64,000 nt of DNA from Mobula birostris. Its lineage: Eukaryota. The notes under the pieces were generated by a model, which saw only the letters and a list, made by a program, of their open reading frames with translations, had not been told where the DNA came from and searched no databases. Shown piece by piece: positions 8,822 through 59,701 of the stretch (positions are counted from its first letter, which is position 1; each line of letters starts with the position of its first letter). Both the position numbers and the translations under genes were made by a program. The stretch is taken from NCBI RefSeq assembly GCF_030028105.1, contig NC_092392.1, positions 40,099,628 through 40,163,627 on the forward strand, read 5' to 3'.

Positions 8822-10040
8822 CAGGGGTCCCCAATATTTTTTGCACCGCAGATCGGTTTAATATTGACAATATTCTTGCAGACTGGCCGACCGGGTGGGG
8901 GGGGGGGTGTTAATCACAACCGGAATATAGGTGATAAGTCAACTATAAGTCACTTATAAGTGGCTAATACACTCAATCTCATTTCTGAAGGGGTTTATCT
9001 AACGAATTTAATATTAAACACACAACACGTATTTTCCTCACATGAGTATAGTGATAAGTCAATTATAACAGTGGTTCCCAACCTCCGGGCTGCGGACTGA
9101 TACATTGCTGCGAAGAATGCAGCAGTACAGTGGTAGCCGGAATGCACCCAGCACACCTTTAAGAAAAAAGCCGAAATGAACAAGCTACACTCACAACACG
9201 CTGGAGGAACTCAGGAGGTCGGGCAGCATCCATGGAAACGACACAATCAGCAATCGCCTCTGATCTGAGCGGACATTTACGTGCCAGGCAGCACCTAATT
9301 AATTAGCTTGTTTATTTCGGCTTTTTCCTTAAAGATGTGCTGGGTGCGTTCTGGCTACTGCTGTACCGCTGCATCCTTTGCGGCCTGGAGGTTGAAGTCA
9401 CTTATAAGTCAATAGCATCATAACATTTTAAGTAGCGTTTGGATATTAAACACACAGTGCATATTTTCCTCGTATGAACATATAACATCATTGCAACACA
9501 CCAATATTGCTGAATCAGTGGGAACCCTGGGCTTGTTTTCCTACAACAAGACGGTCCCATCGACAGGTGATGGGAGACAGCAATACTCGAAGGGGGTTCC
9601 TTATGTCCTGTCTAATCCGTAATTTAGTTTTCATTGCATTCATTGCAGAAAACTCCGCTTCTCAGTGGTATGATGTTGGAAATGGAAGCAACGTTTTCAG
9701 TGCTTTCGTGAATATCTCAGGATATTTAGCCTTGACTTTGATCCAGAATGTCGGCAGAGGTGTTATGTCAAACATATTTTTCAGCCCACCGTCATTTGCA
9801 AGCTCGAGGAGTTGATCTTTTTCCCGCGCTGACATGGATGATTCACCGGGGACATTCACAAATGGGTCACGGCCCCATTCCTTTGCACGTCTTGATCACT
9901 GATGACCTTGCGTGCGTTGAAGTTCAACAGTGGGCGTGACAGGGAATGAGGAAAGATGCAGCTGACTCATATCGTCAAATCATATCTTTTCCTCGCGGCC
10001 TGGTAGCGCATGCTTTGTGGCCGGTAGTTGGGGATCACTG
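8822..10040 (-). mobile_element. Non-autonomous hAT (Charlie/Buster-like) element inserted in a CR1
   Basis: TIRs CAGGGGTCCCCAA/TTGGGGATCACTG; approximate TSD TGTATCC; dimerisation-domain remnant FWIKVKAKYPEIFTKALKTLLPFPTSY. Confidence 0.87.
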
Positions 10041-28165: not shown

Positions 28166-31075
28166 AAGTTGCTAGAAAGTATGTGAATCCTTTGCAGTTA
28201 CCTGACTTTCTGCATTAATTGCTCATAAAATGTGACCTAATCTTCATCTAAGTCACAATATTAGACAAACACAATCGGCCTAAACTAATAAGAAACAATT
28301 ATACAACCTCTCATCAATACTGAGTACACACTTAAAACAATCACAGACTAGGATTCAAAAGTATGTGAATCTCTGGGGTAATGCCTTCTACAAAAGCTAT
28401 TTGAAGTCAGGTGTTCCAATCAATGAGATGAAATTGGAGGTGTGGGTTGTCGAGGTGCCCTTCCCTATATAAAAAAAACACACACAAAGTCCGATAGAGC
28501 CTGCTTTTCTCAAGAAAGATCTGGTTATATGCACCATGCCTCGATCAAAACAACTTTCAGAGGACCTTAGAAGAACTGTAGAGATGTATGAAGTTGGAAA
28601 AGGCTTCCAAAACATTTCTAAAGACCTGAGTGTTATCAGTCCATGGTAAGAGAAAATGTCTACAAATGGAGGAAATTCAGTACTGTTGCTACTCTCCCCA
28701 GGAGTGGGTGTTCTGTAAAGATCACACCAAGAACACAATTTGTAATGCTGAAGGAGGTGAAAAAAGAACCCAAGGGTAACAGCAAAAGACCTCCAGAAAT
28801 CTCTAGAACTTTGATCAAGTCTTTTTTCATGTGCCCACTATAAGAAAAGTACTGAATAAGAATGAAGTTCATGGAAGGACACCATGAAGGAAACCACTGC
28901 TCTTCAAAAAAAACATTGCTGCACATCTCAAGTTTGCAAAGACCACCTGGATGTTCCACAACGCTTCTGGGACAATGTTCTGTGGACAAGTGAGCCAAAA
29001 GTTGAAATTTTTGGCAGAAATACACACATCTATGGTTTGGAGGAAAAAGGGTACAGGTTTCCCCCGCCATCCGAAGGTAGAGCGTTCCTATGAAATGGTT
29101 TGTAAGCCTGAATGTCGTAAAGCGAAGAAGCAATTAGTATTTATTTATATGGGAAAAATTTGTGAGCGTTCGCAGACCCAAAAATAACCTACCAAATCAT
29201 GCCAAATAACACATAAAACCTAAAATAACAGTAACATATAGTAAAAGCAGGAACGATATGATAAATACACAGCCTATATAAAGTAGAAATACAGTACTTC
29301 TCCACAATCATTGCTGTACTGTCCACCAAAGCGAAAATCTCATGCAAGCGCTCTTGGCAATCACGGCACAAGCGTTGTCGGCAGAAAATCTCATGCAAGC
29401 GCTCTCAGCAGAAACACTCTCTCCAGTAACCTTTAAGCTATGAAGCTGCCAAATCATTCCAACTAACACGTAAAAATACACAGCCTACATAAAGTAGAAA
29501 TAATGTATGTACAGTGTAGTATCACTTACCGGAATCGGGAAGACAGCGCAGAGCACACTGATGATGGTGTGTTAGACTGAGTCGTCGGAGATTGGGGTGG
29601 TGCAGTGGCCCCCACCCTCCGGGCAGCGAACCGGTACCGATCCGTGAAACATGCAGGGGTACAGCGGTAGCTGGGAGGTACACAGCACATCTTTAAGAAA
29701 AAAGCCAAAATAAATATGCTAATTAATTAGGTGCCACCCAGCATGTAAATGTCGGCCCAGATCAGAGATGACACAGTCAGCAATCGTCTCTGATCTGGGT
29801 CGACAGTTACGTGCTGGGCAGCACTTAATTAATTAGCTTGTTTGTTTCGGTTTTTTTCTTAAAGATGTGCTGGGTGCTTCCCGGCTACCGCTGCATTCTC
29901 CGCGAATTGGTATCTGTCCGCGGCCCGTTCGCTACTGCATTCGGTTTCGATTGTTATCCTTTCCTCTTCCAATTGCATCAGCTCTTCATCTATCAATTCT
30001 TGGTCATAGGATGCCAAAACCTCTTCAACATCATCTTCGTCAACTTCCACAAGCCAAACTCACTCTGTCCTTACTTCGTTCACCACGATGGAAATGCTTA
30101 ATTATGTCTAGTTTTACGCTAAGTGTAACACCCGTATGAGCTCTTTTAGGCTTTTCCGATACTTTAGAACTCGTCTTGCTAACAGCTGCTCACAGGCACG
30201 TGTTTAAGCAATGCCAGCGAGCATGTTGTTCTGAATCCGGGGGAGAGCAGCTGCTCAGGGCGTGCGGTGCGCTGCTTTTTTATCGCGTGCTGCCTTTTTT
30301 CGTAACAGTGAAAACACTTTCTGTTAGCAAGAACAGGGAACTAATGTAGGTTTCGTAAAGCAAACATTCGAAAAGCGGGGGACACCTGTACTGCACACCA
30401 ACACACCACTGTGAAGTATGGTGGAAAGAGCATCATGGTTAAGACCTTCTTTGCTGCCTCAGACAGCTTGTAATTGTTGAAGGAACAATGAACTCAAAAA
30501 TTGTATCAAGACATTTAACAGAATCTCAGTCACTGAAGCTTAATAGAAGTTGGATGATGCAACAAGACAATGATCCAAAACATAAGAGTAAATCAACAAC
30601 AGAATGGTTTAAAAAGAAGAAAGTTCATGTTTTGGAATGACCAAGTCAGCGTCCAGAACTGAACACAGTTGAGATGCTGTGGCATGACCTGAAGATGGCT
30701 GTTCATGCAAGGCAGCCCAGAAATATTGATGAACTGAAACAATTTTGTGCGGAGTAAGGGTCTAAAATTCCACCTCAATGTTGTGCAAGTCTGATCAGCA
30801 GTTACAGGAAACGTTTGGTGGGGGTTATTGCCGCTAAAAGAGGCTCAATCGGTTATTAAATACAAGGGTTCACACTCTTTTTCTTGTCTGAACTGTGAAT
30901 GATTAAACAACGTATTCAATAAAGACATGAAAAGTACAATTGTTTGTGTGTTATTAGTTTAGACAGCTTGCGTTTGTCTATTATTGTGACTTGGATGAAG
31001 ATCAGACCACATTTTATGAGTAATTAATTGCGAAAACCAGCTAATTGCAAAGGGTTCACAAACCTTTTTGCAACT
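28166..31075 (+). mobile_element. Tc1-like transposon (decayed, interrupted by the Tigger element)
   Basis: MPRSKQLSEDLR..., FWDNVLWTSEPKVEIFG, WRKKGT|A..TVKYGG, QQDNDPKH, SQRPELNTVEMLW remnants; long imperfect TIRs with internal repeats. Confidence 0.88.
29054..30388 (-). mobile_element. Internally deleted Tigger/pogo-like DNA transposon nested in a Tc1
   Basis: TIRs CAGGTTTCCCCCGC/GCGGGGGACACCTG with TA TSD on both sides; VTLSVKLDIIKHFHRGERSKD joined to VEVDEDDVEEVLASYDQELIDEELMQLEEE. Confidence 0.9.
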
Positions 31076-37811: not shown

Positions 37812-40288
37812 GTAAGGGGCTGGTGGTCGATCGGGATTGTGTCCATTTAAAGCCGCTAATGAAAGACAGTTGAGGGCAGCGAGAACTGTTTTAGCATATC
37901 TTATTTATCCAGAAGTTCGCCTGATTTTTCATCCGTCATTGGAGAAGAATCAACTCTTGTGTTTTTGACTACTCATGATTTTATTTCCATTGTTCTTGAT
38001 GCTATGAATTAGAGCTGGTTGAGGAAATAAGTGTAAATAAATTGAATTTGCAGTTGCACATACGGTGTGCCATTTCTCTTTGCTGGAGTTGAGATGTCGA
38101 GACTACCTTTAACTATGAACATTTTAACATCTGTTAGACAACCAGCGCTGGCAGATTCTGAGTTGGAGAAAAATCCATCCTTAATGCTGTCACTTGATCT
38201 TACAGCTATAGGGATAGTCCACCCAATGCAAAGCTAGGCAAATCTTTTAGAAAATGTAAGGTAAACATCAATAACAAAATGAAGCTATGCGTAGCAAAAT
38301 GAACTCACATTTTAAAGTTTGATTATTTTAAGTTATTAACTAATCAAATCTGTAAAGCTGGTGGTGTTTCAATGATTTGTGCCTCTGAAGGAATTTTGTG
38401 TTTCATCTGGAATAGGGAGAATCAAAAGCTGCAGATATTTGGAAATCCACAATATATATATAAACGGGAATTGTGGGAAAGACTCAGCAGATCAGACAGC
38501 ATTCGTTAAAAGAAAAATAAGGGTTAATCTTTCAGATTGAAGATCTTTTGTCAGAATTGGTAGAAACAAGTCAAGTTCGTTTTAAATTGAAAAAGAATTT
38601 GGGAAGGGACAGATTGGAGAAAATGAATATGCCCAATAGGATGAGGTGAAATTTACTCTGGGGTAAATTCTTGCTGAGTAACTTGATGATAAACCGATGA
38701 GGGAAGATAAAAAGAATACAAAAGAACATGTACAAACTGTGAAATGCAGAGATGTAGGAAGTGCCCACCAAGTCAGAAAAGCAGCCTAGTATTAGTAAGT
38801 ATAAATGCAAACTACGTGAGTTTTCCTGCAACTATATCCAAACACATGCATTTCAGACAGTAGCAAGCATTTAAGGTGAGTGGGGTAACTTCAAAGATAT
38901 GTCGGGAAAAGTTTTTACAGAGTGGTGGGTACCTGGAAATGAGCTGCTAGGGATGGTGGTGGAAGCAAATACTATAGAGGTATTTAAGAGGTGAATGTGT
39001 GGAAAATGTAGGGATATTAAAAAATAAATTACGATAATATATATTTTAAAAATTAAGTAGTTTAAAATAAGAGGGGGAAAATAATGAGGTAGTGTTCATG
39101 GATTCATTGTCCATTCAGAAATCTGATGACTGAGGGAAAGAACCTGTTACTGAAACATTGAGTATGTGTCTTCTGTCTCTTGTACCACTACCTTGATGCT
39201 AGTAATGATAAGAGGCCATATCGCGAGTGATGGGGGTCCTTAATGAGGGATGCTGCTTTTTCGATGCATCACCTTTTGAAGGTGTCCTGGATGGTGCGGA
39301 GGATAGTGTCCATGATGGAACTGGTTGAGTTTGCAACTTCCTGCAGCTTTTTCTGATGCTGTGCAATGGCCACTCCATACCAGATGGTGATACAACCAAT
39401 TTGAATGTTGTCCACAGTAGATGTAGAAATTTGGTCGTACCAAGTCATCTCAAACTCCTTTCCACTGCTGATCCTTTGATGAGGACTGATGTGTGTACCC
39501 TTCACTGATTTCAAGGTTGTTGTTCTCACGAAACTCTCTGATCTTTCTCTCTCTTGTATGGCTCCTCATCACCATTTCAAATTCTGCCAACAATTGTTGT
39601 GTCGTGGGCAAATTTATAGATGGTGTTTGAGCTGTGCCTAGCTACACAGTTGTAGGTGTAGAGAAGTGGAGTGGTGGGCTAAGCATGCATCCTTGAGATG
39701 CGCCAATGTTGATTGTCAGCAAGGAAGAGATATTATTTCCAATATGCACTGACTGTGATATCCCAGTGAGGAAGTCAAGGAATCGAGTTGCAGAGGGAGG
39801 TATAGAGGACCAGGTTTTGGAGCTTGTTGATTAGAACCGAGGGTATGATTGTGTTGAATGCTGAGCTACAGTCAATAAGCAGCAGCCTGATGTATGTATT
39901 ACTATTATCCAGGTAATCCTAGACCGAATGGAGAGCCAGTGAGATTGCATCTGCTTTAGATGTATTGCAGCAGATTCAGGTCCTTGCTTAGACAAGAGTT
40001 GGTTCTAGCCATGACCAACCTCTCAAAGTACCTCATCGCAGTAGATGTGAGTGCCTCTGGACGATAGTCATTGAGATGGCTCACCCTGCTCTTCTTAGGC
40101 ACTGGTATGATAGTTACCCTTTTGAAATAGGTGGGAATCTCCGACAGCAGCAGTGAGAGATTGAAGATGTCTTTGAACACTTCCACCTGTTGGATGGCAC
40201 AGATTTTCAGTGCCCTACCAGGTAAATCATCAGGGCCTAATGCCTTGGGATGGTTCACCTTCTTTAAAGATGTTCTGATGTTGACCTC

Positions 40289-40840
40289 TGTTGTAGCATG
40301 GATGAAATTACTGGAGAGACAGAGTCACTGGTAGATACAAAGCAGCTTCTTTATTTGACACAACAAGATACAGCAGGCATCTTACGGACGGAGACGCTTT
40401 CCGCAGAAAGGTCTGCTAGCTCAATGTGGGCTCGATATTTATATGCTAAACACAAAGGCAATCGCTGCTTAAAAAGTTATAGACAATGCTTCCTATTGAA
40501 GCTACATACAAAATATCACACCATCCTTTCCTTCCGACACCAACATGTCTGGGTTGGTAACCACAGCCTTTCGGAATGTAAGTTAAGTCTATGGTACATT
40601 TATTTGGCATTTCCCGTGCTAACATAGAAGACAATTAATATTTATAATGTATAGATAATACTGTCTTCGAAACTACAGCATCAAGTCAAACTACGGCGCC
40701 CGAGGCATCTGGTATTCACACCTTTTAGGAAGCCCATTGTGGTGGACTCAATCCACAGTCCTTTGTCAAACAGTTAAAATAGAAGTCGGGTGGCCAAAAA
40801 GTGTAAACAAATCATCTACCCAAAAAAATTCACTCTAACA
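40289..40840 (-). repeat. 3' LTR
   Basis: Preceded on minus by the polypurine tract AAGAGGAGGGAC (40841-40852); TATA-like CATATAAAT near 40440; AATAAA at 40355-40350. Confidence 0.95.
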
Positions 40841-41489
40841 GTCCCTCCTCTTGGCCTTCCTGGACAAAAATTAAATTTGTATCAGGAAAGGCCAACCTAG
40901 GAGGATCTGATCAAATAGGGCAGCAAAAATGCCCTGTCTCAAAATTCCCCCCAATTTTATGTACCTCGATATCTATCCTAGCATTACCTAATCACTACCT
41001 ACCAAATGTTAAGCAGAGAGGCTGTTCCAAGTCTTTAGTAATGCAGTTCCTTTCATGTTCCTGCAGGCTGACTGCATCTTAATCACATTCCTTTGTCTTC
41101 AGCCCTTTATCCTCTGGTCACTGAAACTCTCCTTCCAGGATCACCCACAGGCTCTCTCATCAATGTACAGGAAGGGGTTGGGGTGGCCTTTACGTAAATG
41201 TCTGCAAGGAACTCTCTCCCTGGTGGCACCCCCTTCCGAACTGTTCCGTTGATCACTGGCTCAACTGCTGAAAAGGGCCAAGCTCCCCAGACTCGGGGTG
41301 ACTGCTTTCAGATGCCGTGTGCAGTCTGAAATGCCTTCGAAGTGGTGGAACTTGCCATCTCTGCTTTAGCTCAAAAATCCCTCCCCGTCTATTTCCCAAA
41401 TAATTTCTATACTATGCTATAAAATTAATCATCTACCTTCAGCAACCAGCCTTCTTTATAGAGTACCATCATCACCACACTTTAGCAGG

Positions 41490-42560
41490 CTATTCATGGT
41501 TTTCCAACACGTTCTCAGTGTCTTCTGCCACACTCTCAGCGTTTTCTGCCCTTGCGTTTTCTCTGAGTATGTTTTCATCAGCTGTGGTCAGGTCTGGCAT
41601 GGCTGGCTGGTGTTCCTCTCTTAGGTTCTCTGTAATTACATGGTGACTCTGTACACTTGGTTCCCCACTCTGTCTGTGGGAGCAACAAGAGGGTGAGTTG
41701 TATGCTTTAACCTGAGTCCAGTGTTTCCACTGGCTGCCTCGCCGAGTCTGTACGCAGACACACGTATCATGGTTAAGAGTACCGTCTGTGGTCCTATCCA
41801 CCTGGGGGCAAACCCCGGCCTTCCTGGTAATACATCCACCCATGTCTTTCCTGTCTCAGCTATAGCTTTGGCTAACGCATTCTTGATTGTTCGGTTCATC
41901 CTTTCTACCATCCCTGAAATCTGGGGGTGGTAGGGTACGTGGAACCATTGTTGAATCCCTAGTAGTTGGCACATTTCCTTTATCACTTGCCCCGTGAAAT
42001 GTGCTCCCTGATCTGAAGCCACCTGAACTGGGGTTCCCCGCCTTGGGAGGATTTCCTGAACTAGGATCCATGCAGCGGTGCAGGGGATGCAGTCCCTTGC
42101 TGGGAAAGCCTCTACCCACCGAGTGAAGTAATCCATGATTACTAGACAGTAACTTTTCCCCCTGCTTTTTGGCAGGGGCCCTGTGAAGTCTATCTGGATG
42201 TTTTCCCAGGGTCCCCTCGGCGGAGGCTGATTTGCCAGCTGTAGCTTTCTGCCCTTACTAGGGTTATGCTGGGCACAAATGATACAACGGTGGCAGAATT
42301 TCTCAACATCCCCGCCCAACGCTAGCCTCCACCAGTCCTGCCAGAGGGTTGTGATCATGCTCTGCCTTCCCTGATACATTGCTCCATGATATAACTTTAG
42401 TAGTATCTGTCTAATACAGGGTGGGGCCACCGTGACTCTTTCCTCCCCGTCTATGTCTAGCATCCATCTGATCCCTCCTTTGCTCCTTTTCTCCTCCATT
42501 TTTCCTTCTCTTCTGCCATTACCTCTTCATATAATTTTACTAAGCTGGCTTCTGTCGTTT
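41490..42560 (-). pseudogene. Integrase of the LTR element
   Basis: Degenerate HHCC (YHGAMYQG...CHRCIIC), IQIDFTGPLP, SDQGAHF, SGMVERMNRTIK; C-terminal PRWIGPQTVLLT...WKHWTQVK after a frameshift. Confidence 0.92.
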
Positions 42561-42737
42561 CCTCTGCACACTTGCAATTTTAATTGCCTCTTGTTCCCCT
42601 GCTTCCTTATTTGCAGTAATGTCTGCCCTCGGAGGAACTGGGAAAACTTTATGTTCTGGAGTGGCCACAGTCTCCCTGGTGTTTTTGTTCCTTCCCTATA
42701 CCCTGAACAGCGGTCAGTGTGTCAGTTTGTGTGGAGT

Positions 42738-44383
42738 CCTGCTTAGGTGGTTTATACAGACCCTCCTCTATTTTAACTGGGTCTATCTCTACCTGCTCAC
42801 AATCTTGCTTGTCTCTAGCCCACACAGCTAGGTACGGGTGACAAGGTAACCCATAGACACCATCCTGGCTCCAGTCTCTAATGATCGGGGCAGCTGCGCC
42901 TATGCTAGGCAGGTTGTGTATTCTGTTGGTTCTATGCGTTCGCTGCCCCTGACTCGTCTATATTATTTCTCCCTTTCCTGAATCTATAACAGCTCCTGCT
43001 TCCCTTAGGATGTCTATTCCAAGGATCGTGCCCTCATTGTTTGGACATACCCAGAAATACACTGGAAGCTGCACTCCCCCGATTTCTAGTATCTGCGATT
43101 CGCTTCTTTTTGCTTTTACTGTTTTCCCTCCTATACCCCTGATATAACTGGCCTCTCCAGTTGTTGGTAAGGGTAAGTCTGTTATCGATACCGATGCCCG
43201 TGTCCACTAACATATCGCATTGCCGTCCCCTTAACAATGCCATTGTGTACATCCGTGAATCACCAGTGCTGCCAGTGGAGCCCGCTGCCACATCTTTTTC
43301 TGCTTTAAGAGGCGCCATTATTAACTCTTTTATCTGATCAACAGTCAGACTGGTTGCTGATGGAGTGAGTGACTGGGTGTCTGCTGTGACCTTCGCCTGG
43401 GTTTTCCCCCTGCCTTTTGGACACTGTCTCCAACCATGTCCTGATAGGCCACACCTGTAGCATATCAACTCCTTCACTGCCTTATACGTGGTATGGTAGT
43501 CCTTTGCTGGGTGCCCTGGCTGCTGGCAAGCAAAACAAACTCTCCGGGACATCACAGCAGCTGCATCCACTATACTCACTTTACGATTTCTCTTGCCTTT
43601 TCTTTGGTCTGTCTCACTGGCCCACGAAACTATCGCAGAGTAGGTGGACCCTACCGTTATACCTAAATCTAAAACTTCCTGGTGGGCTGAGCTCAAGCCT
43701 TCCTTCAGCATTTTTAGGAAGACTGGGTCGTCCCTCCCTGGATTTCCCAACCTGGAATACTCCTCATATGCTCGATATTTATGCTCTGCATAATCCATGG
43801 CTGTCTCATCAGTTTTTTGAATCACTGCCATTATCGTTCCCCAGCTACTCTCGCCTCCCCCCAGCCACTGCCTCACTTCCCCTTTAAAAGAGCGATATCT
43901 TTCTTCATTACTGGCGCTCCCGGTAGTTGTGCATGTACCATCCCGCATCCCCTGGGCCATTCTGTCCCACATATTCCTTGGGCACTTGGCTTTCACTATC
44001 AAATGTATATCTTTAGGGTGCATCTGGTGAATTTCAACCATTTCTTCCAATTTGTGCCAGAACGCTGAATTCCCACAGGCAACTTTAAGTGAGGGCAACT
44101 CGGACAAAATGCTCTGTTTCTTCCCGGGGCTGAAGGGCTTGTGAATAGTCATAATCAAGGTCAAGGGCTGGCTCGGATCATCAGGGTTCTGAACCTGACG
44201 TTGCCAGACCTCAATAGGTGCCATTCTAGTTGATCTCTCTGGGTAAAACCTCCCCCTGAGATAGCTCCATACTAATTCCCACACTACGCAAAATATCATA
44301 GACGGATAGCAGTTAAACAGTACAAACTTAAAACTGCAGAGTACGTATTCCACAATCTGCCACTTTTGAGTACCCGAACCCAT
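42738..44383 (-). pseudogene. gag-pro: gag-protease (plus first residues of RT) of the LTR element
   Basis: Open from MGSGTQ (44383) through a CA-like region, knuckles CFACQQPGHPAKDY (degenerate) and CYRCGLSGHGWRQC, to LVDTG. A 1-nt deletion at ~43197 shifts the frame; the corrected frame gives DTGASVS...RGIGG...TILGIDIL, one TAG, then the RT-start-like VWARDKQDC...PPKQ. Confidence 0.88.
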
Positions 44384-44454
44384 GATGCCTGCTGTATTCT
44401 CTTGTGTCACACTTACAAACACATCATTAAAATACAGCTTTCCGAACGAGTATT

Positions 44455-45877
44455 CAGGTTTCCCCTGCCATCCGAAGGTAGAGCGTTCCTATGAAAAGGT
44501 TCGTAAGCCGGAATATCGTAAAGCGAAGAAGCAATTACCATTTATTTATATGGGAAAATTTTGTGAGCGTTCACAGACCCAAAAATAACCTACCAAATCA
44601 TGCCAAATAACACACAAAACCTAAAATAACAGTAACATATAGTAAAAGCAGGAATGATGTGATAAATACACGGCCTATATAAAGTAGGAATACTTTTCCA
44701 CAATCATTGCCTGAACTGTTCTCCATAGCGAAAATCTCACGCAAGCACTCTCGGCAAAAACACGGCACAAGCGCTCTCCAGTAACCTTTAAACTATGAAG
44801 CTGCCAAATCATACCAAATAACACGTAAAAATACACAGCCTTTATAAAGTAGAAATAATGTATGTACAGTGTAGTATCACTTACCGGAATCGGGAAGACA
44901 GCACCGAGCACACTGATGATGGTGTGTTAGGCTGAGTTGTTGGAGGTTAGGGTGGTGCAGTGGCCCCCACCCTCCGGGCAGCGAATCAATACCAATCAGC
45001 GAAGCATGCAAGGGTACAGCGGTAGCCGGGAGGCACTCAGCACATCTTTTAAGAAAAAAGTCGAAATAAACATGCTAATTAATTAGGTGCCGCCCGGCAC
45101 GTAATTAATTAGCATGTTTCGTTTGGCTTTTTTCTTAGAGATGTGCTGAGTACCTCCCGGCTACCGCTGCATTCTCCGCGAATCGATATCTGTCCGCGGC
45201 CTGGGGTTTGGAGTGGTGGGACACTGGGGTGTCATCTGATCATCGTCTGTTTCCATTAGGGCAGGCAGGTTATCTTCTTCTATCTCTTCCTGCCATGATG
45301 TCGAAGGTCGAGGTTCATCGTCTGATGTGGAAGGCTTGAAAAACGACAGTACGGTATGCTTGACTGCTGAGCCTCAGGCATTTTTCTATCATATAGTTCT
45401 TTGTAACTACTCATTCGGTTTCGATTGTTATCCTTTCCTCTTCCAATTGCATCAGCTCTTCATCTATCAGTTCTTGGTCATGGGATGCCAAAACATCTTC
45501 AACATCATCTTCGTCAACTTCCACAAGCCAAACTCACTTACTCCTTACTTTGTTCACCATGATCGAAACGCTTAATTATGTCTAGTTTTACGCTAAGTGT
45601 AACACCTTTACGAGCTCTTTTAGGCTTTCCTGATACCTTACAACTCATCTTGCAAATGGCTGCTCACAGGCACGTGTTAGAGCAATGCCAGCGAGAATGC
45701 TCTTCCGAATCTGGGGGAGAGCGGCTGCTCGGGGCGCGCGCTGATATTTTTTTTCACGCGCTGCCTTTTTTCGTAACAGTGAAAACACCTTCTGTTAGTG
45801 AAAACAGGGAACTAATGTAGGTCTTTTGTAACAGTGAGGTTTTGTAAAGTGAACGTTCGAAAAGCGGGGGACACCTG
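44455..45877 (-). mobile_element. Internally deleted Tigger/pogo-like DNA transposon nested in the ERV leader
   Basis: TIRs CAGGTTTCCCC.../...GGGGGACACCTG, TA on the right; remnants of the transposase N-terminus (VTLSVKLDIIKRFDHGE) and acidic C-terminus; same family as 29054-30388. Confidence 0.88.
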
Positions 45878-46174
45878 TACACGCTCCTACTCTGGCGTTT
45901 CGAACCGTACCATTGGTTACCACCTTTCGCAACTGGTGGTCCAAGTCTCACCAAGTTAACCAAGTTAACATGCAAAGATTCCTCACGTACATAAACACAC
46001 ATGCACACGCACACACTACTTTTATATCTACCAGTTCAGTTCTCCACGTTCGTGATACCTCGTGTTCCCGTGTGTCCACCGACCGAACAGATCCAAGTGT
46101 GAGTGTTATTTTAGAAAAATACTCACCAATTTAAGACTGCTAGGAACGCTGGCCACACGACGGGTCATGAAGGT

Positions 46175-46192
46175 ATCCCACTTCTGATACCA
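46175..46192 (-). promoter_or_regulatory. Primer-binding site complementary to tRNA-Leu(CAA)
   Basis: Minus strand TGGTATCAGAAGTGGGAT, 2 nt after the 5' LTR; one mismatch to the complement of the vertebrate tRNA-Leu-CAA 3' end (ATCCCACTTCTGACACCA, recalled). Confidence 0.85.
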
Positions 46193-46194
46193 AA

Positions 46195-46748
46195 TGTTGT
46201 AGCGTGGATGAAATTACCGGAGAGACAGAGTCACTGGTAGATACAAAGCAGCTTCTTTATGCGACACAAGGTACAGCAGGCATTTTATGGAAGGAGACGC
46301 TTTCCGCAGAAAGGTCTGCTAGCTCAATGTGGGCTTGATACTTATATGCTAAACACAAAGGCAACCGCTACTTAAAAAGTTATAGACAATGCTTCCTATT
46401 GAAGCTACATACAAAATATCACACCATCCTTTCCTTCCGACGCCAACGTCTGAGTTGGTATCCACAGCCTTTAGGAATGTAAGTTATGTCTATGGTACAT
46501 TTATTTGGCATTTCCCGTGCTAACGTAGAAGACAATTAATATTTATAATGTATAGATAATAGTCTTCAAAACTACAGCATCAAGTCAAACTACGGCGTCC
46601 GAGGCATCTGGTACTCACACCTTTTAGGAAGCCCATTGTGGTGGGCTCAATCCACAGTCCTTTGTCAACCAGTTAAAATAGAAGTCTGGTGGCCAAAGTC
46701 ATTTAAGTGTAAACAAATCATCTACCCAAAAAAATTCACTCTATAACA
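46195..46748 (-). repeat. 5' LTR
   Basis: Direct repeat of 40289-40840 (about 24 substitutions plus 6 indels by manual count); adjacent to the PBS. Confidence 0.95.
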
Positions 46749-48379
46749 GCCTCCGAAACAGAGATCACAGGGCCAGACCCTGCAGGGATTCGCACAGGTG
46801 TGGTTTTATTCTCCATTTCAAAGTGTGCAAAAAAAAACGTTGAGCTCATCTGGGATTGAAGCATCACAGCCATTCATGATGTTAGGTTTCGCTTTGTGGG
46901 TAATAATGGCTTACAACCCCTGCCAGAGCTGATGTGCATCCGATTCCATCTCTAACCTCAACTGGAATTATTTCATTATAGCCTACCCTAGGTCGTACCT
47001 GGACTTCTTGTATTGTTCAGGATCACCAGTATAAGTATGTTCTCGAAGACCTGCACTCATCCACGCTGGTCTTAATTAAGTCGATGACAACTGCAGTATA
47101 TTCACTCAGATTTGAAGATTAATCCTGGAATATTGTCCAGTCCGACTCAGAGCAGTCCTATAATTGCTCCTCTGCCCCTCTTGACCATATCTTCTTGGTC
47201 TTAACCACTGGTTCTGCGGTCTTTATTCTGTGCCTTATACACTGGGAGTAGGAGTACAGCCAAGTGATCAGACTTTTCAGTGTGTGGGTGTGTGGAATGG
47301 TACAGTAAGTGTTCTCTATGGTGGTGTAACAGTGGTCAAGTGTGTTGGCTCCTCTAGTTCCACTGGTGATATGCTGGTGATGGTTGTTCCGAGATTTCAA
47401 GCTGACCTGGTTTAACACCCCATGATGATAGGAAAAGCATCAGAGTGTACTGCTTCATGCCTGCTGATTACAGTGCTCAGCTGCTCCAGTGCCTGCTGAT
47501 GTTGGCTTGAGGTGGCATGTACACTGCTACCAGGATGATGGCGGAAAACTCCCTTGGCATATTAAAAAGAACATTTGACCACTATATAAGACAGAGCTGC
47601 CAAAATTGTGCACCATAATGTTAATCATAAGGCATACTCTTCTACCTTTAAAAGTCAGCTGTCGTGTTTTTGCAGTGAATGGTGTCACCATCGAGTTGCA
47701 CACTGTATCAGAAATGACAGGGGGCAGCCATGTTTCCATAAAGCAAAGTACACAGCAGTCCCTGATGTACCTCTAGAACAGCAATCTTGCTGTGTGGTCT
47801 TCAGTTTTATGTTCTAGAGACTGTATATGCACCAGCAAGATAGTTGGGAGTGGGGGACAAAGGCCTTTGTGTTTCAATCGTGCTTGCAGACCAGCTCGAC
47901 CTCCATATTTCCATTTTCTTAAGGTGGAACTGAAGTCGCAACCCAAGCGTGCAGTCCAATTTTGAGTAGCGATAGAGTTTTGTAAACGTCTTAAAATGAT
48001 GCTTCTTACTGAAGTACCTATAACTGTGACTGGGTTTCAGCTTTAGTGGTCCTTAACGGGGATATTTGATGAATCCCATCTGAGCGGCACTTAGAATCAC
48101 CACATATTGGTGCCATATTACTGACTTGGAGCAGGCTGAAGGGACCAAAAAACTATTCCTCTTACTTTAGATTATTGTCTTCTTTCTTTTTTAAAAATAA
48201 ACAAAACTACCTAATTGATTACAGAGTGAATAATTGTGTATTTTATAGAAGTATTATTTTTCCCAGCAGGGAAGGGTGTGGTGAAATAGATGGGGGAAGG
48301 TGGGTTTGTTCTAATAGTATCAGTGGACTTCTATTTTATTGGCAATGAAAGAAAACAGTGCTTCAACTTTTCATTTTAG

Positions 48380-57920: not shown

Positions 57921-58464
57921 ATATATACACACTTGATGACAGATTGGTGCATGCTATCAGAATAGTAAACATTTCCAACTAAATTTTCAAAAAGGAAATT
58001 TGGGCCATTTTTATCACCACTAAGTTTTACATCAATATCAGCTTTAATATCACTGACATATGTCGTGAAATCTGTTAACCTTGCAGCAGCAGTATAATGC
58101 AATACATGACAAGTAATACACATGCACCCCTAACCCAAAAACTATGCTTTTCATTATATTTTTAATGTACATGTGATAAATCTGAACCTAAATATTGAAC
58201 AGGGTTATGCAGTGGAGCTTCTGTTCATACACAGCTGCTGGCTGATGTCAATGAATGGTAGATATAAAGTTGATTCTTCCTCCCCTTTGAATTCATAACC
58301 TTATTCATAGTACATAAGTGACGTGTACTGGAAAACAGATGGCTGAGCTATTTTCTGTTGGCTCTAAGCAGCCAGGTTGAAACAATATTTGTGGCAATCC
58401 ATGAAAAGGCATTTTAAAAAGCCTCAACAGAGAAATTACCTTGTTTCAGTTTATTTGTGTATAA

Positions 58465-59701
58465 CAGTGGTCCCCAACCACCGGGCTGGGGACCGGTACC
58501 GGGCCGCAAAGCATGTGCTACCGGGCCGCGAGGAAACGATATGATTTGACAATATGAGTCTGTTGCACTTTTCCTCATTCCCTGTCACGCCCACTGTTGA
58601 GCCATTACACATGCGAGGTCATTACCCGCGCGTCATCCGTGTCAGCACGGGAAGGAGATCAACTCCTCAAGTTTGTAAATAATGGCGGGCTGAAAAGTAT
58701 GTTTGACTTAAAATCTCTGCCGGCATTCTGGATCTAAGTCAAGGCTAAATATCCTGAGGTAGCCACGAAAGCGCTGAAAACGTTGCTTCCATTTCCAACA
58801 TTTTTCTGCGAAGCGGAGTTTTCTGCAATGAATGCAACGAAAACTAAATTGCGGAATAGACTAGACAATAAGGAACCCCCTTCGAGTATCGCTGTCTCCC
58901 ATCACCCCTCGATGGCACCGTCTTGTTGCAGGAAAACAAGCCCAGGGCTCCCACTGATTCAGCCCAGCGATATTGGTGTGTTGCAATGATTTTATACGTT
59001 CATACGGGGAAAATATGTGCTGTGTGTTTAATATCCAAATGTTACTTGAAATGTTATGATGCTATTGACTTATAAGTGATTTATATAACCATATAACAAT
59101 TACAGCGCAGAAACAAGCCATCTCTGCCCTTCTAGTCAGTGCGGAACGCTACTCTCACCTAGTCCCACCGACCTGCACTCAGCCCATAACCCTCCATTCC
59201 TTTCCTGTCCATATAGCTGTCTAGTTTTTCCTTAATTGATAATATCGAACCTGCTTCTGCCACTTCTACTGGAAGTTTGTTCAGCACTTACTTCAAGCTC
59301 CCCTGTCCTCCCCTGATAATTGACATGGCTATATTCATGCAAGGAAAATATGCGCTGTGTGTTTAATATTAAATTCGTTTGATGAACCCTTTTAGAAACG
59401 AAATTGAGTGTATTAGCCACTTATCACCTATATTCCGTTCGTGATTTAACACTCCCCCCCCCGAACAGAATTGCCAAAAACGATTTGTAGCGAAAGAAAT
59501 CGGCATGTACACTCATGCACACTGGTGCCCGCGCAAGGCTTCATGGTCATTGTAGTCTTTCTCGGGGTAAACACAACGTATTTGACTGCTACTCTTGTCC
59601 GTTGACAACCCTAACCACCCACCCCACCCCGGTCGGCCGGTCTGCAAGAATATTGTCAATATTAAACCGGTCTGCAGTGCAAAAAAGGTTGGGGACCCCT
59701 G
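58465..59701 (+). mobile_element. Non-autonomous hAT (Charlie/Buster-like) element, same family as 8822-10040
   Basis: TIRs CAGTGGTCCCCAACC/GGTTGGGGACCCCTG; 8-bp TSD GTGTATAA/GTGTAAAA; LPFPTFFCEAEFSAMNATKTKLRNRLD remnant. Confidence 0.9.

Follow-up and report, generated by a model that had tools for sequence, protein, structure and literature searches.

Evidence on whether defective retroelements are pure parasites or supply protein in cis comes chiefly from a single case in the mouse. Mouse IAP 1-delta-1 is a recent class II subtype of endogenous retrovirus (ERV) that lacks env, and in which an internal deletion of parts of gag and pol has produced an in-frame gag-pol fusion; it is non-autonomous, the fusion is reported to act in cis, and the subtype outnumbers or out-transposes its helper (PMC6466679, PMC7411935). 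Other defective ERVs are mobilized in trans by a related helper and often dominate in number, as in ETn/MusD, VL30/MLV, MaLR/ERV-L and the bovine ERVK D-type/C-type pair (PMC1331978, PMC6466679, PMC10924933), the defective partners in the ETn, VL30, MaLR and bovine systems being non-coding or without functional genes. Zebrafish BHIKHARI (Bik-1 and Bik-2) and chicken ENS-1 are also non-autonomous and keep gag in the absence of reverse transcriptase (RT), with gag alone and no remnant of protease or of integrase; Bik is loki-related, and no helper was found for Bik-1 (bioRxiv 2024.03.25.586437). Here we compare with these systems a provirus that lacks RT and env and occupies positions 40289-46748, on the minus strand, of a stretch of 64,000 nucleotides of Mobula birostris DNA (NC_092392.1, positions 40,099,628 to 40,163,627), referred to below as the window.

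This provirus belongs to an RT-less, env-less ERV family present at 198 or more sites, which likely receives RT from an RT-bearing parent by co-packaging and likely uses its own Gag and protease in cis. We assign this reading a probability of roughly 0.7, and we infer translation, particle formation and the identity of the helper from sequence. By analogy, the family likely works as IAP 1-delta-1 does, both being non-autonomous and env-less with an in-frame Gag-Pol remnant. Unlike the mouse subtype, it retains a whole selected capsid (CA), nucleocapsid (NC) and protease (PR), has lost the gag stop codon, carries nested deletions and reached its layout at least twice. It keeps a long selected open reading frame (ORF), in contrast to the defective partners named above, a PR and integrase (IN) remnant, in contrast to BHIKHARI and ENS-1, and a parent in the same genome, in contrast to Bik-1. 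New here are a Gag-PR that is whole and selected, a gag stop that has been lost, deletions nested one within another, an independent second origin and the constancy of the IN C-terminal domain. Hundreds of datable copies record stepwise and repeated loss, which makes the choice between parasitism and protein contribution testable by sequence alone. No description of the family was found in the published literature searched, with Repbase/Dfam, subscription journals and bioRxiv supplements outside that search, and it may already carry a repeat-library name.

An earlier note on the window, made from its letters only, had raised the possibility of a replicating RT-less family that borrows RT, and had suggested comparing the RT-deletion junction with the genome. 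The comparison bears the proposal out. With the junction as query, all 40 scored loci matched at nearly full length, and RT is missing from each of the 20 matches that were fetched. Twenty loci found by way of integrase comprise 17 with the same junction, one that bears RT, one with another deletion and one that is truncated. A 27-nucleotide junction pattern, with at most one mismatch allowed, occurs at 198 loci on many contigs and both strands (reversed control, 0), and it recovers 8 of 13 independently found copies, so that the true family size may be ~300. Target-site duplications (TSDs) of 5 bp, within one mismatch, flank 20 of 28 two-ended copies and differ in sequence between independent copies; TSDs of 4 bp are seen in three or four copies, and segmental duplication accounts for four of the 28. 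The idea of a unique post-insertional deletion is therefore rejected, the junction being present at 198 loci. Splicing was rejected as well as a source of the deletions, which by eye have short microhomologies at their junctions and no GT..AG ends. Contigs from at least three runs under other organism codes also span the main junction, with no fewer than 31 letters to either side, and the matches listed for a run under a fourth code span it by 23-46. Provided that these codes stand for different species, the family predates the separation of those hosts.

Some proviruses have been copied whole, together with their flanks, by segmental duplication: L107/L110/L113/L114 on contig C38, L053/L054 on C4 (an inverted pair, 99.97% identical), L026/L027 on C33 and L102/L103 on C24. 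Three of these sets (L107/110/113/114, L026/027 and L102/103) are what could be cited for the alternative that the shared junction is one post-insertional deletion multiplied by segmental duplication or gene conversion. This explanation is practically inconceivable for the family as a whole, being refuted by the distinct TSDs, the differing flanks, the spread of the 198 loci over many contigs and both strands, and the nesting of subfamilies described below.

The organization of the provirus in the window is as follows.

46749..46753, no strand: TSD, 5' side; 5 bp that differ at one position from the 3' duplicate
46195..46748, minus: 5' long terminal repeat (LTR), 95.6% identical to the 3' LTR
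46175..46192, minus: primer-binding site (PBS) for tRNA-Leu, matching tRNA-Leu genes of the genome
44455..45877, no strand: non-autonomous Tc1/pogo-type transposon (a DNA transposon), inserted later at a TA site and bounded by terminal inverted repeats; missing from 20 of 20 other copies
44225..44407, minus: ~60-residue hydrophobic segment in frame with CA; relatives have a 150-270-residue matrix/coiled-coil region
43550..44224, minus: CA with N-terminal beta-hairpin (structure model, pLDDT 89; MLV capsid best match)
43421..43537, minus: NC with two CCHC knuckles, knuckle 1 minus one ligand in this copy
43292..43294, minus: sense codon at the position of the amber gag stop of many RT-bearing relatives
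42958..43260, minus: PR, with a frameshift directly after DTG in this copy
42661..42850, minus: N-terminal RT stub, ~64 codons, relaxed
42629..42660, minus: 32-nucleotide RT-derived bridge between two nested RT deletions
42450..42628, minus: last RNase H helix and IN N-terminal extension
41826..42449, minus: IN zinc-binding domain and catalytic core, which retains D, D and E; other branches have deleted it
41490..41825, minus: IN C-terminal domain and acidic tail, downstream of a private in-frame deletion at ~41823
40853..41489, minus: env-less 3' region, colinear with that of the RT-bearing parent
40841..40852, minus: polypurine tract
40289..40840, minus: 3' LTR
40284..40288, no strand: TSD, 3' side

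The two LTRs (552 and 554 bp) both have TG...CA ends and are 95.6% identical, with 519 matches and 24 mismatches over 543 aligned positions (Kimura two-parameter distance 0.046). The PBS is complementary, with one or two mismatches, to the 3' end of a tRNA-Leu gene of the same genome; a pattern for this 3' end has 94 genome matches, and two of four scanned loci were called tRNA-Leu(CAG). Pfam models detect two zinc knuckles, a PR below cut-off, and IN H2C2 and rve core domains. The LTRs, TSD, tRNA-Leu PBS, polypurine tract and paired knuckles that the earlier note had read from the sequence are all confirmed, as is its statement that the RT core and RNase H are absent from the provirus and that no env-like ORF is found in the ~640-nucleotide 3' region. 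Its placement of the end of RT at PPKQ (~42738) is superseded: the stub extends to 42661 and is followed by the 32-nucleotide bridge and then the last RNase H helix. The only close database protein to the provirus Gag is an annotated protein of Mobula hypostoma that is 87% identical.

RT was removed by two deletions, both in frame, of 138 bp at 42660|42661 and of ~1.5 kb at 42628|42629. The bridge between them (42629-42660) derives from further inside RT, and RT was thus lost in two nested steps. Subfamily B, which accounts for 6 of 20 fetched copies (L148, L150, L155, L156, L160 and L162), has a 400-bp LTR, is 82% identical to the parent and shares the ~1.5-kb junction with the window's subfamily, A, without the 138-bp step; it has its own 654-bp integrase deletion. 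Within subfamily A, the integrase core was removed by a 489-bp deletion, detected by pattern at 30 loci, and another 135 bp were lost as well. Another five of 20 fetched copies (L200-L204), only ~70% identical to the parent, form subfamily C, in which RT was lost through a different junction and four copies are without the zinc and core domains of integrase (846 bp as measured in one of them); one, L200, has an open frame from PR to the IN C-terminal domain. Judged from these junctions, the RT-less layout arose at least twice, once in A and B and independently in the older subfamily C. LTR divergence is 0.15-0.22 in C (two copies), 0.05-0.12 in B and mostly 0.03-0.08 in A, and the junction has outlived several LTR types.

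All seven large shared deletions are in frame (138 bp, ~1.5 kb, 135 bp and 489 bp in A, 654 bp in B, and the RT and 846-bp losses in C) and read in frame into the IN C-terminal domain. This outcome has p ~5e-4 at a chance of 1/3 each, and 28 of 116 private indels are in frame. The stretch from gag to integrase is covered by natural ORFs of 757 and 881 amino acids. The expendable parts are thus RT, RNase H, the integrase core, the gag stop and matrix, and the parts kept in frame are CA, NC, PR and the IN C-terminal domain, whose constant retention hints at an unexplained role for this domain.

In sequence, a template switch took out RT in frame from palm to RNase H, A and B descend from the product, and A subsequently lost the further 138 bp. 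Later branches lost the integrase core, with the frame again running on into the C-terminal domain, and they went on spreading; since these core-less branches spread, integrase too could be borrowed. The earlier suggestion that the family supplies its own capsid and integrase thus holds in part: CA and PR are under selection (see below), and at least 30 loci without the catalytic core still spread. The older subfamily C reached the same layout on its own.

A genome search that took a database relative's RT as query brought up the parent. RT-bearing parent loci are ~85% identical in nucleotide sequence to the window element in gag-pro, are 6.9-7.25 kb long, and have LTRs, PBS, leader and 3' region in common with the RT-less copies. 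They contain ~1.65 kb of additional sequence encoding RT (with YVDD), a tether and RNase H; an alignment to the database protein P0001 spans both tether and RNase H, and the parent therefore has a dual RNase H. About 16 loci match the parent RT at 83-90%, and an older tier matches at 72-80%, among the 40 that were scored out of 290 candidates. Every RT-bearing copy in which the frames were read is broken. One such copy lies truncated beside a long tandem array with a ~28/56-bp unit (L149, 4500-9584, oriented).

These full-length relatives, which the earlier note had recommended inspecting for env, have none: in the parent copies the 3' region is ~640 nucleotides long and colinear with that of the RT-less copies. 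A genome search for env, run with a stricter first look, gave 78 loci, and none of the 25 that were compared matches the RT-less family. We infer that the missing env represents loss rather than the original state. The 78 env loci (including L121-L145, with RT rows L078-L080) belong to a separate many-copy class I (epsilon-like) ERV family that is clustered, for example on contig C11. A third retroviral family with dual RNase H (L059, L064, L077 and L097-L099) joins amphibian proteins in the RT tree.

An amber-type allele ends gag in 9 of 17 RT-bearing copies (7 with an intact TAG and 2 one step away). Reading the parent as a single ORF, as one copy had suggested, was rejected once this allele was seen in further RT-bearing copies. 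Among 45 RT-less copies that were not chosen for the stop site, 43 are stopless, 2 are unreadable and none is amber. An ancestral stop is suggested by the most divergent copies and by database relatives with pol ORFs starting at protease. On this allele distribution the open gag-pro frame is derived, and it is therefore no sign of a deep lineage, as the earlier note had taken it to be. The genome thus harbored a parent that lacked env, ended gag with an amber codon, had a dual RNase H and began with a short hydrophobic segment, and that probably retrotransposed within germ cells; in nearly all RT-less copies a sense codon has replaced the stop, giving one ORF for Gag, PR, stub and IN.

Selection was assessed in 40 RT-less copies by comparing changes found in at least three copies with singletons, after nine mapped copies (duplicates, close pairs and other structures) had been dropped. 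For CA, the ratio of nonsynonymous to synonymous rates (omega) is 0.17 for shared changes versus 0.91 for singletons (p 2e-8), and for PR it is 0.29 versus 1.21 (p 0.001). No significant omega deficit was detected in the RT stub, the linker or the IN N-terminus, and the integrase core has an omega of 0.12-0.22 among the 21 copies that keep it. By this measure, CA and PR are under purifying selection and the RT stub is not, with the signal confounded by recombination. Differences diagnostic of RT-less versus parent copies give 4 nonsynonymous (N) and 7 synonymous (S) changes in PR, 14/1 in the stub and 0/0 in CA (Fisher p 0.003). Positive selection on the stub was rejected, its 14 N/1 S not being above neutrality (p 0.13).

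Capsid trees intermix RT-less and RT-bearing copies, and trees of the junction region split them. Capsid alleles held in common with the parent, together with a separate junction region, suggest co-packaging with template switching. Capsid, LTR and integrase alleles are mixed, probably through recombination with the parent, and PR and stub have stayed linked to the junction.

The same pattern bears on whether the RT-less copies were pure parasites, that is, whether parent proteins packaged their RNAs and their own ORF had no protein role, its frames being open only to escape nonsense-mediated decay and its selection signal arriving through recombination. CA, NC and the IN C-terminal domain have only 0-1 diagnostic differences between RT-less and RT-bearing groups, most shared CA variants occur in the parent too, the integrase core is dispensable, and loss of the gag stop would itself take away a trigger of decay. 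Against these stand the junction-linked PR, which shows a synonymous excess where the adjacent stub shows none, the CA variants confined to RT-less copies (10 N/14 S), and the stop-keeping copies of subfamily C, which still have in-frame deletions past the stop. We consider pure parasitism unlikely.

The RT-bearing copies without a gag stop raise a different prospect, a division of labor in which stopless full-length copies made only long Gag-Pol, RT-less copies made an excess of short Gag-PR, and each depended on the other. Such stopless copies make up 8 of 17 and occur in both young and old tiers, Pol was cut stepwise and always in frame, and the layout appeared twice, with a junction that outlasted changes of LTR. 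Stop-bearing RT copies are found in every tier (the stop-allele search gave 33 loci) and would be self-sufficient, and the A- or B-type linkers of stopless RT-bearing copies allow these to be explained as recombinants, which makes mutual dependence distinctly unlikely. An elaboration that we regard as rather unlikely is a two-part ERV, in which RT-less elements would be heritable donors of short Gag-PR and stopless full-length elements donors of Gag-Pol, together replacing stop readthrough in setting the Gag:Pol ratio. The donor form, with the IN C-terminal domain as its constant end, would have evolved at least twice and outlived several helper waves.

Several observations also weigh against the reading we prefer, a family that borrows RT from this parent and uses its own Gag-PR in cis. 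Every copy in which frames were read, RT-less or RT-bearing, is broken. The stopless allele is not confined to RT-less copies, as noted above; conversely, 2 of the 30 examined loci from the stop-allele search belong to RT-less subfamily A, and some subfamily C copies retain the gag stop. Three small out-of-frame indels are common to 3-4 copies, at homopolymer or dinucleotide runs. Adding three RT-bearing copies cuts the PR contrast to 3 N/5 S (p 0.018; stub 14/1), and the 14/1 of the stub, lying within neutrality, lends no adaptive signal. Because 35 of 59 shared CA variants are also present in RT-bearing copies, the CA signal is weakened and may in part be inherited by recombination. The helper could also be another family, or copies since lost, because the mean age of LTR pairs is lower in RT-less than in RT-bearing copies (20 and 5 pairs, after dropping the short or contaminated rows L036, L045, L047, L049, L083, L086 and L090 and duplicates or close pairs); the gap is soft, high values having occurred in three RT-less rows among those dropped.

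The lineage is retroviral and lies outside Ty3/Gypsy as judged by RT grouping and dual RNase H, in keeping with the earlier assignment to retroviruses rather than Gypsy. Parent RT scores 129 bits against MLV-type, 122 against foamy and 70 against Ty3 proteins. In an RT tree of 62 rows the family groups with three proteins, one of them from horn shark (99/97), is split from Gypsy-like rows at 100/100, and falls outside a 100/99 class I clade that holds REV, bird and reptile proteins and the env-bearing family of the same genome. Membership in class I (gamma/epsilon) was rejected on the latter ground. Deeper nodes are weak (80/64, 86/87) in this tree, which is without rows for snakehead retrovirus (SnRV, clade Huo), loki, ERV-L and foamy virus. 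Counted by hand across 100 columns of a published RT alignment, identities number 54 to SnRV, 45 each to WDSV and MuLV, 42 to AciFLERV, 40 to FFV, 38 to MuERV-L and 37 to Loki-Str, the lowest of the seven references (PMC9040795). By eye, RNase H and integrase are nearer to epsilon/gamma rows. The modeled capsid has the MLV capsid as its top match (Z 11.0, root-mean-square deviation 4.5, 202 aligned residues), the next matches, at Z 10.3 and 10.0, being single domains; the best solved-structure match of the integrase is foamy virus. The 5-bp TSD and tRNA-Leu PBS agree with ERV-L, which has both features. The lineage is probably SnRV-like and class III. It adds an env-less lineage to those of cartilaginous fish, one that would escape any screen in which env or RT is required.

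The earlier note had named a lokiretrovirus-like placement as one candidate. Lokiretroviruses and Odin do share the dual RNase H, and Odin is env-less too (PMC7947760, PMC9040795); the foamy virus match of the integrase, and an RT tree built from rows other than loki references, could also be cited for a lokiretroviral or Gypsy identity. By eye on the published alignment, however, loki/Odin-specific RT motifs are absent from the family RT, its identity to Loki-Str is far below that to SnRV, no mononegavirus-F-like env is found in the copies sampled, and the bit scores and 100/100 split speak against Gypsy. A lokiretroviral or Gypsy identity is therefore highly improbable, and on present evidence the lineage is not a lokiretrovirus. 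It differs as well from SnRV, which is 11.2 kb long with env, matrix and accessory ORFs (PMC12193657), and from the CmiERVs (elephant shark lineage I), which are defined by env, the family having neither env nor a matrix-sized region; no PBS match was found in the CmiERV supplement.

Before the capsid, Gag of the family has ~60 hydrophobic residues, compared with 150-270 residues in relatives. Intracellular ERVs such as IAP and MusD have N-terminal Gag changes, which the short N-terminus of the family recalls. A shift in life-style of intracellular ERVs is mentioned in PMC6466679. The first ATG of the hydrophobic segment is conserved in 45 of 48 copies and altered in the window copy. A deletion of ~12 codons within the segment is common to L026, L029, L030, L032, L039, L046 and L050 and preserves the frame, a hint that the segment is translated.

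The window copy itself is dead, with a frameshifted PR, an integrase deletion and a transposon in its leader. The domains that the earlier note listed as retained (Gag, PR and IN) are present, and gag runs into PR with no stop; the copy nevertheless has a private frameshift just past DTG (~43195) that breaks PR, a private in-frame integrase deletion at ~41823, and the loss of one zinc ligand in NC knuckle 1 and of one in the IN HHCC motif. In the leader, 1423 bp (44455-45877) is a later Tc1/pogo-type DNA transposon, presumably Tigger-like. The hydrophobic segment before CA is not mentioned in the earlier note. The transposon has a second copy in the window at 29055-30389 that is 85% alike, and both contain a shorter palindromic element that also stands alone at 9064-9384 and 58460-58515. 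The provirus is hosted by an old LINE RT fragment (39956-40288 and 46749 onward), whose reading resumes past the insertion site; the sequences that flank the TSDs rejoin as this single fragment. Elsewhere in the genome, contig C17 has ~75 tRNA-Leu(CAG)-type pattern matches between 35 and 87 Mb, arranged in repeated clusters with a regular spacing of 1.4-4.5 kb.

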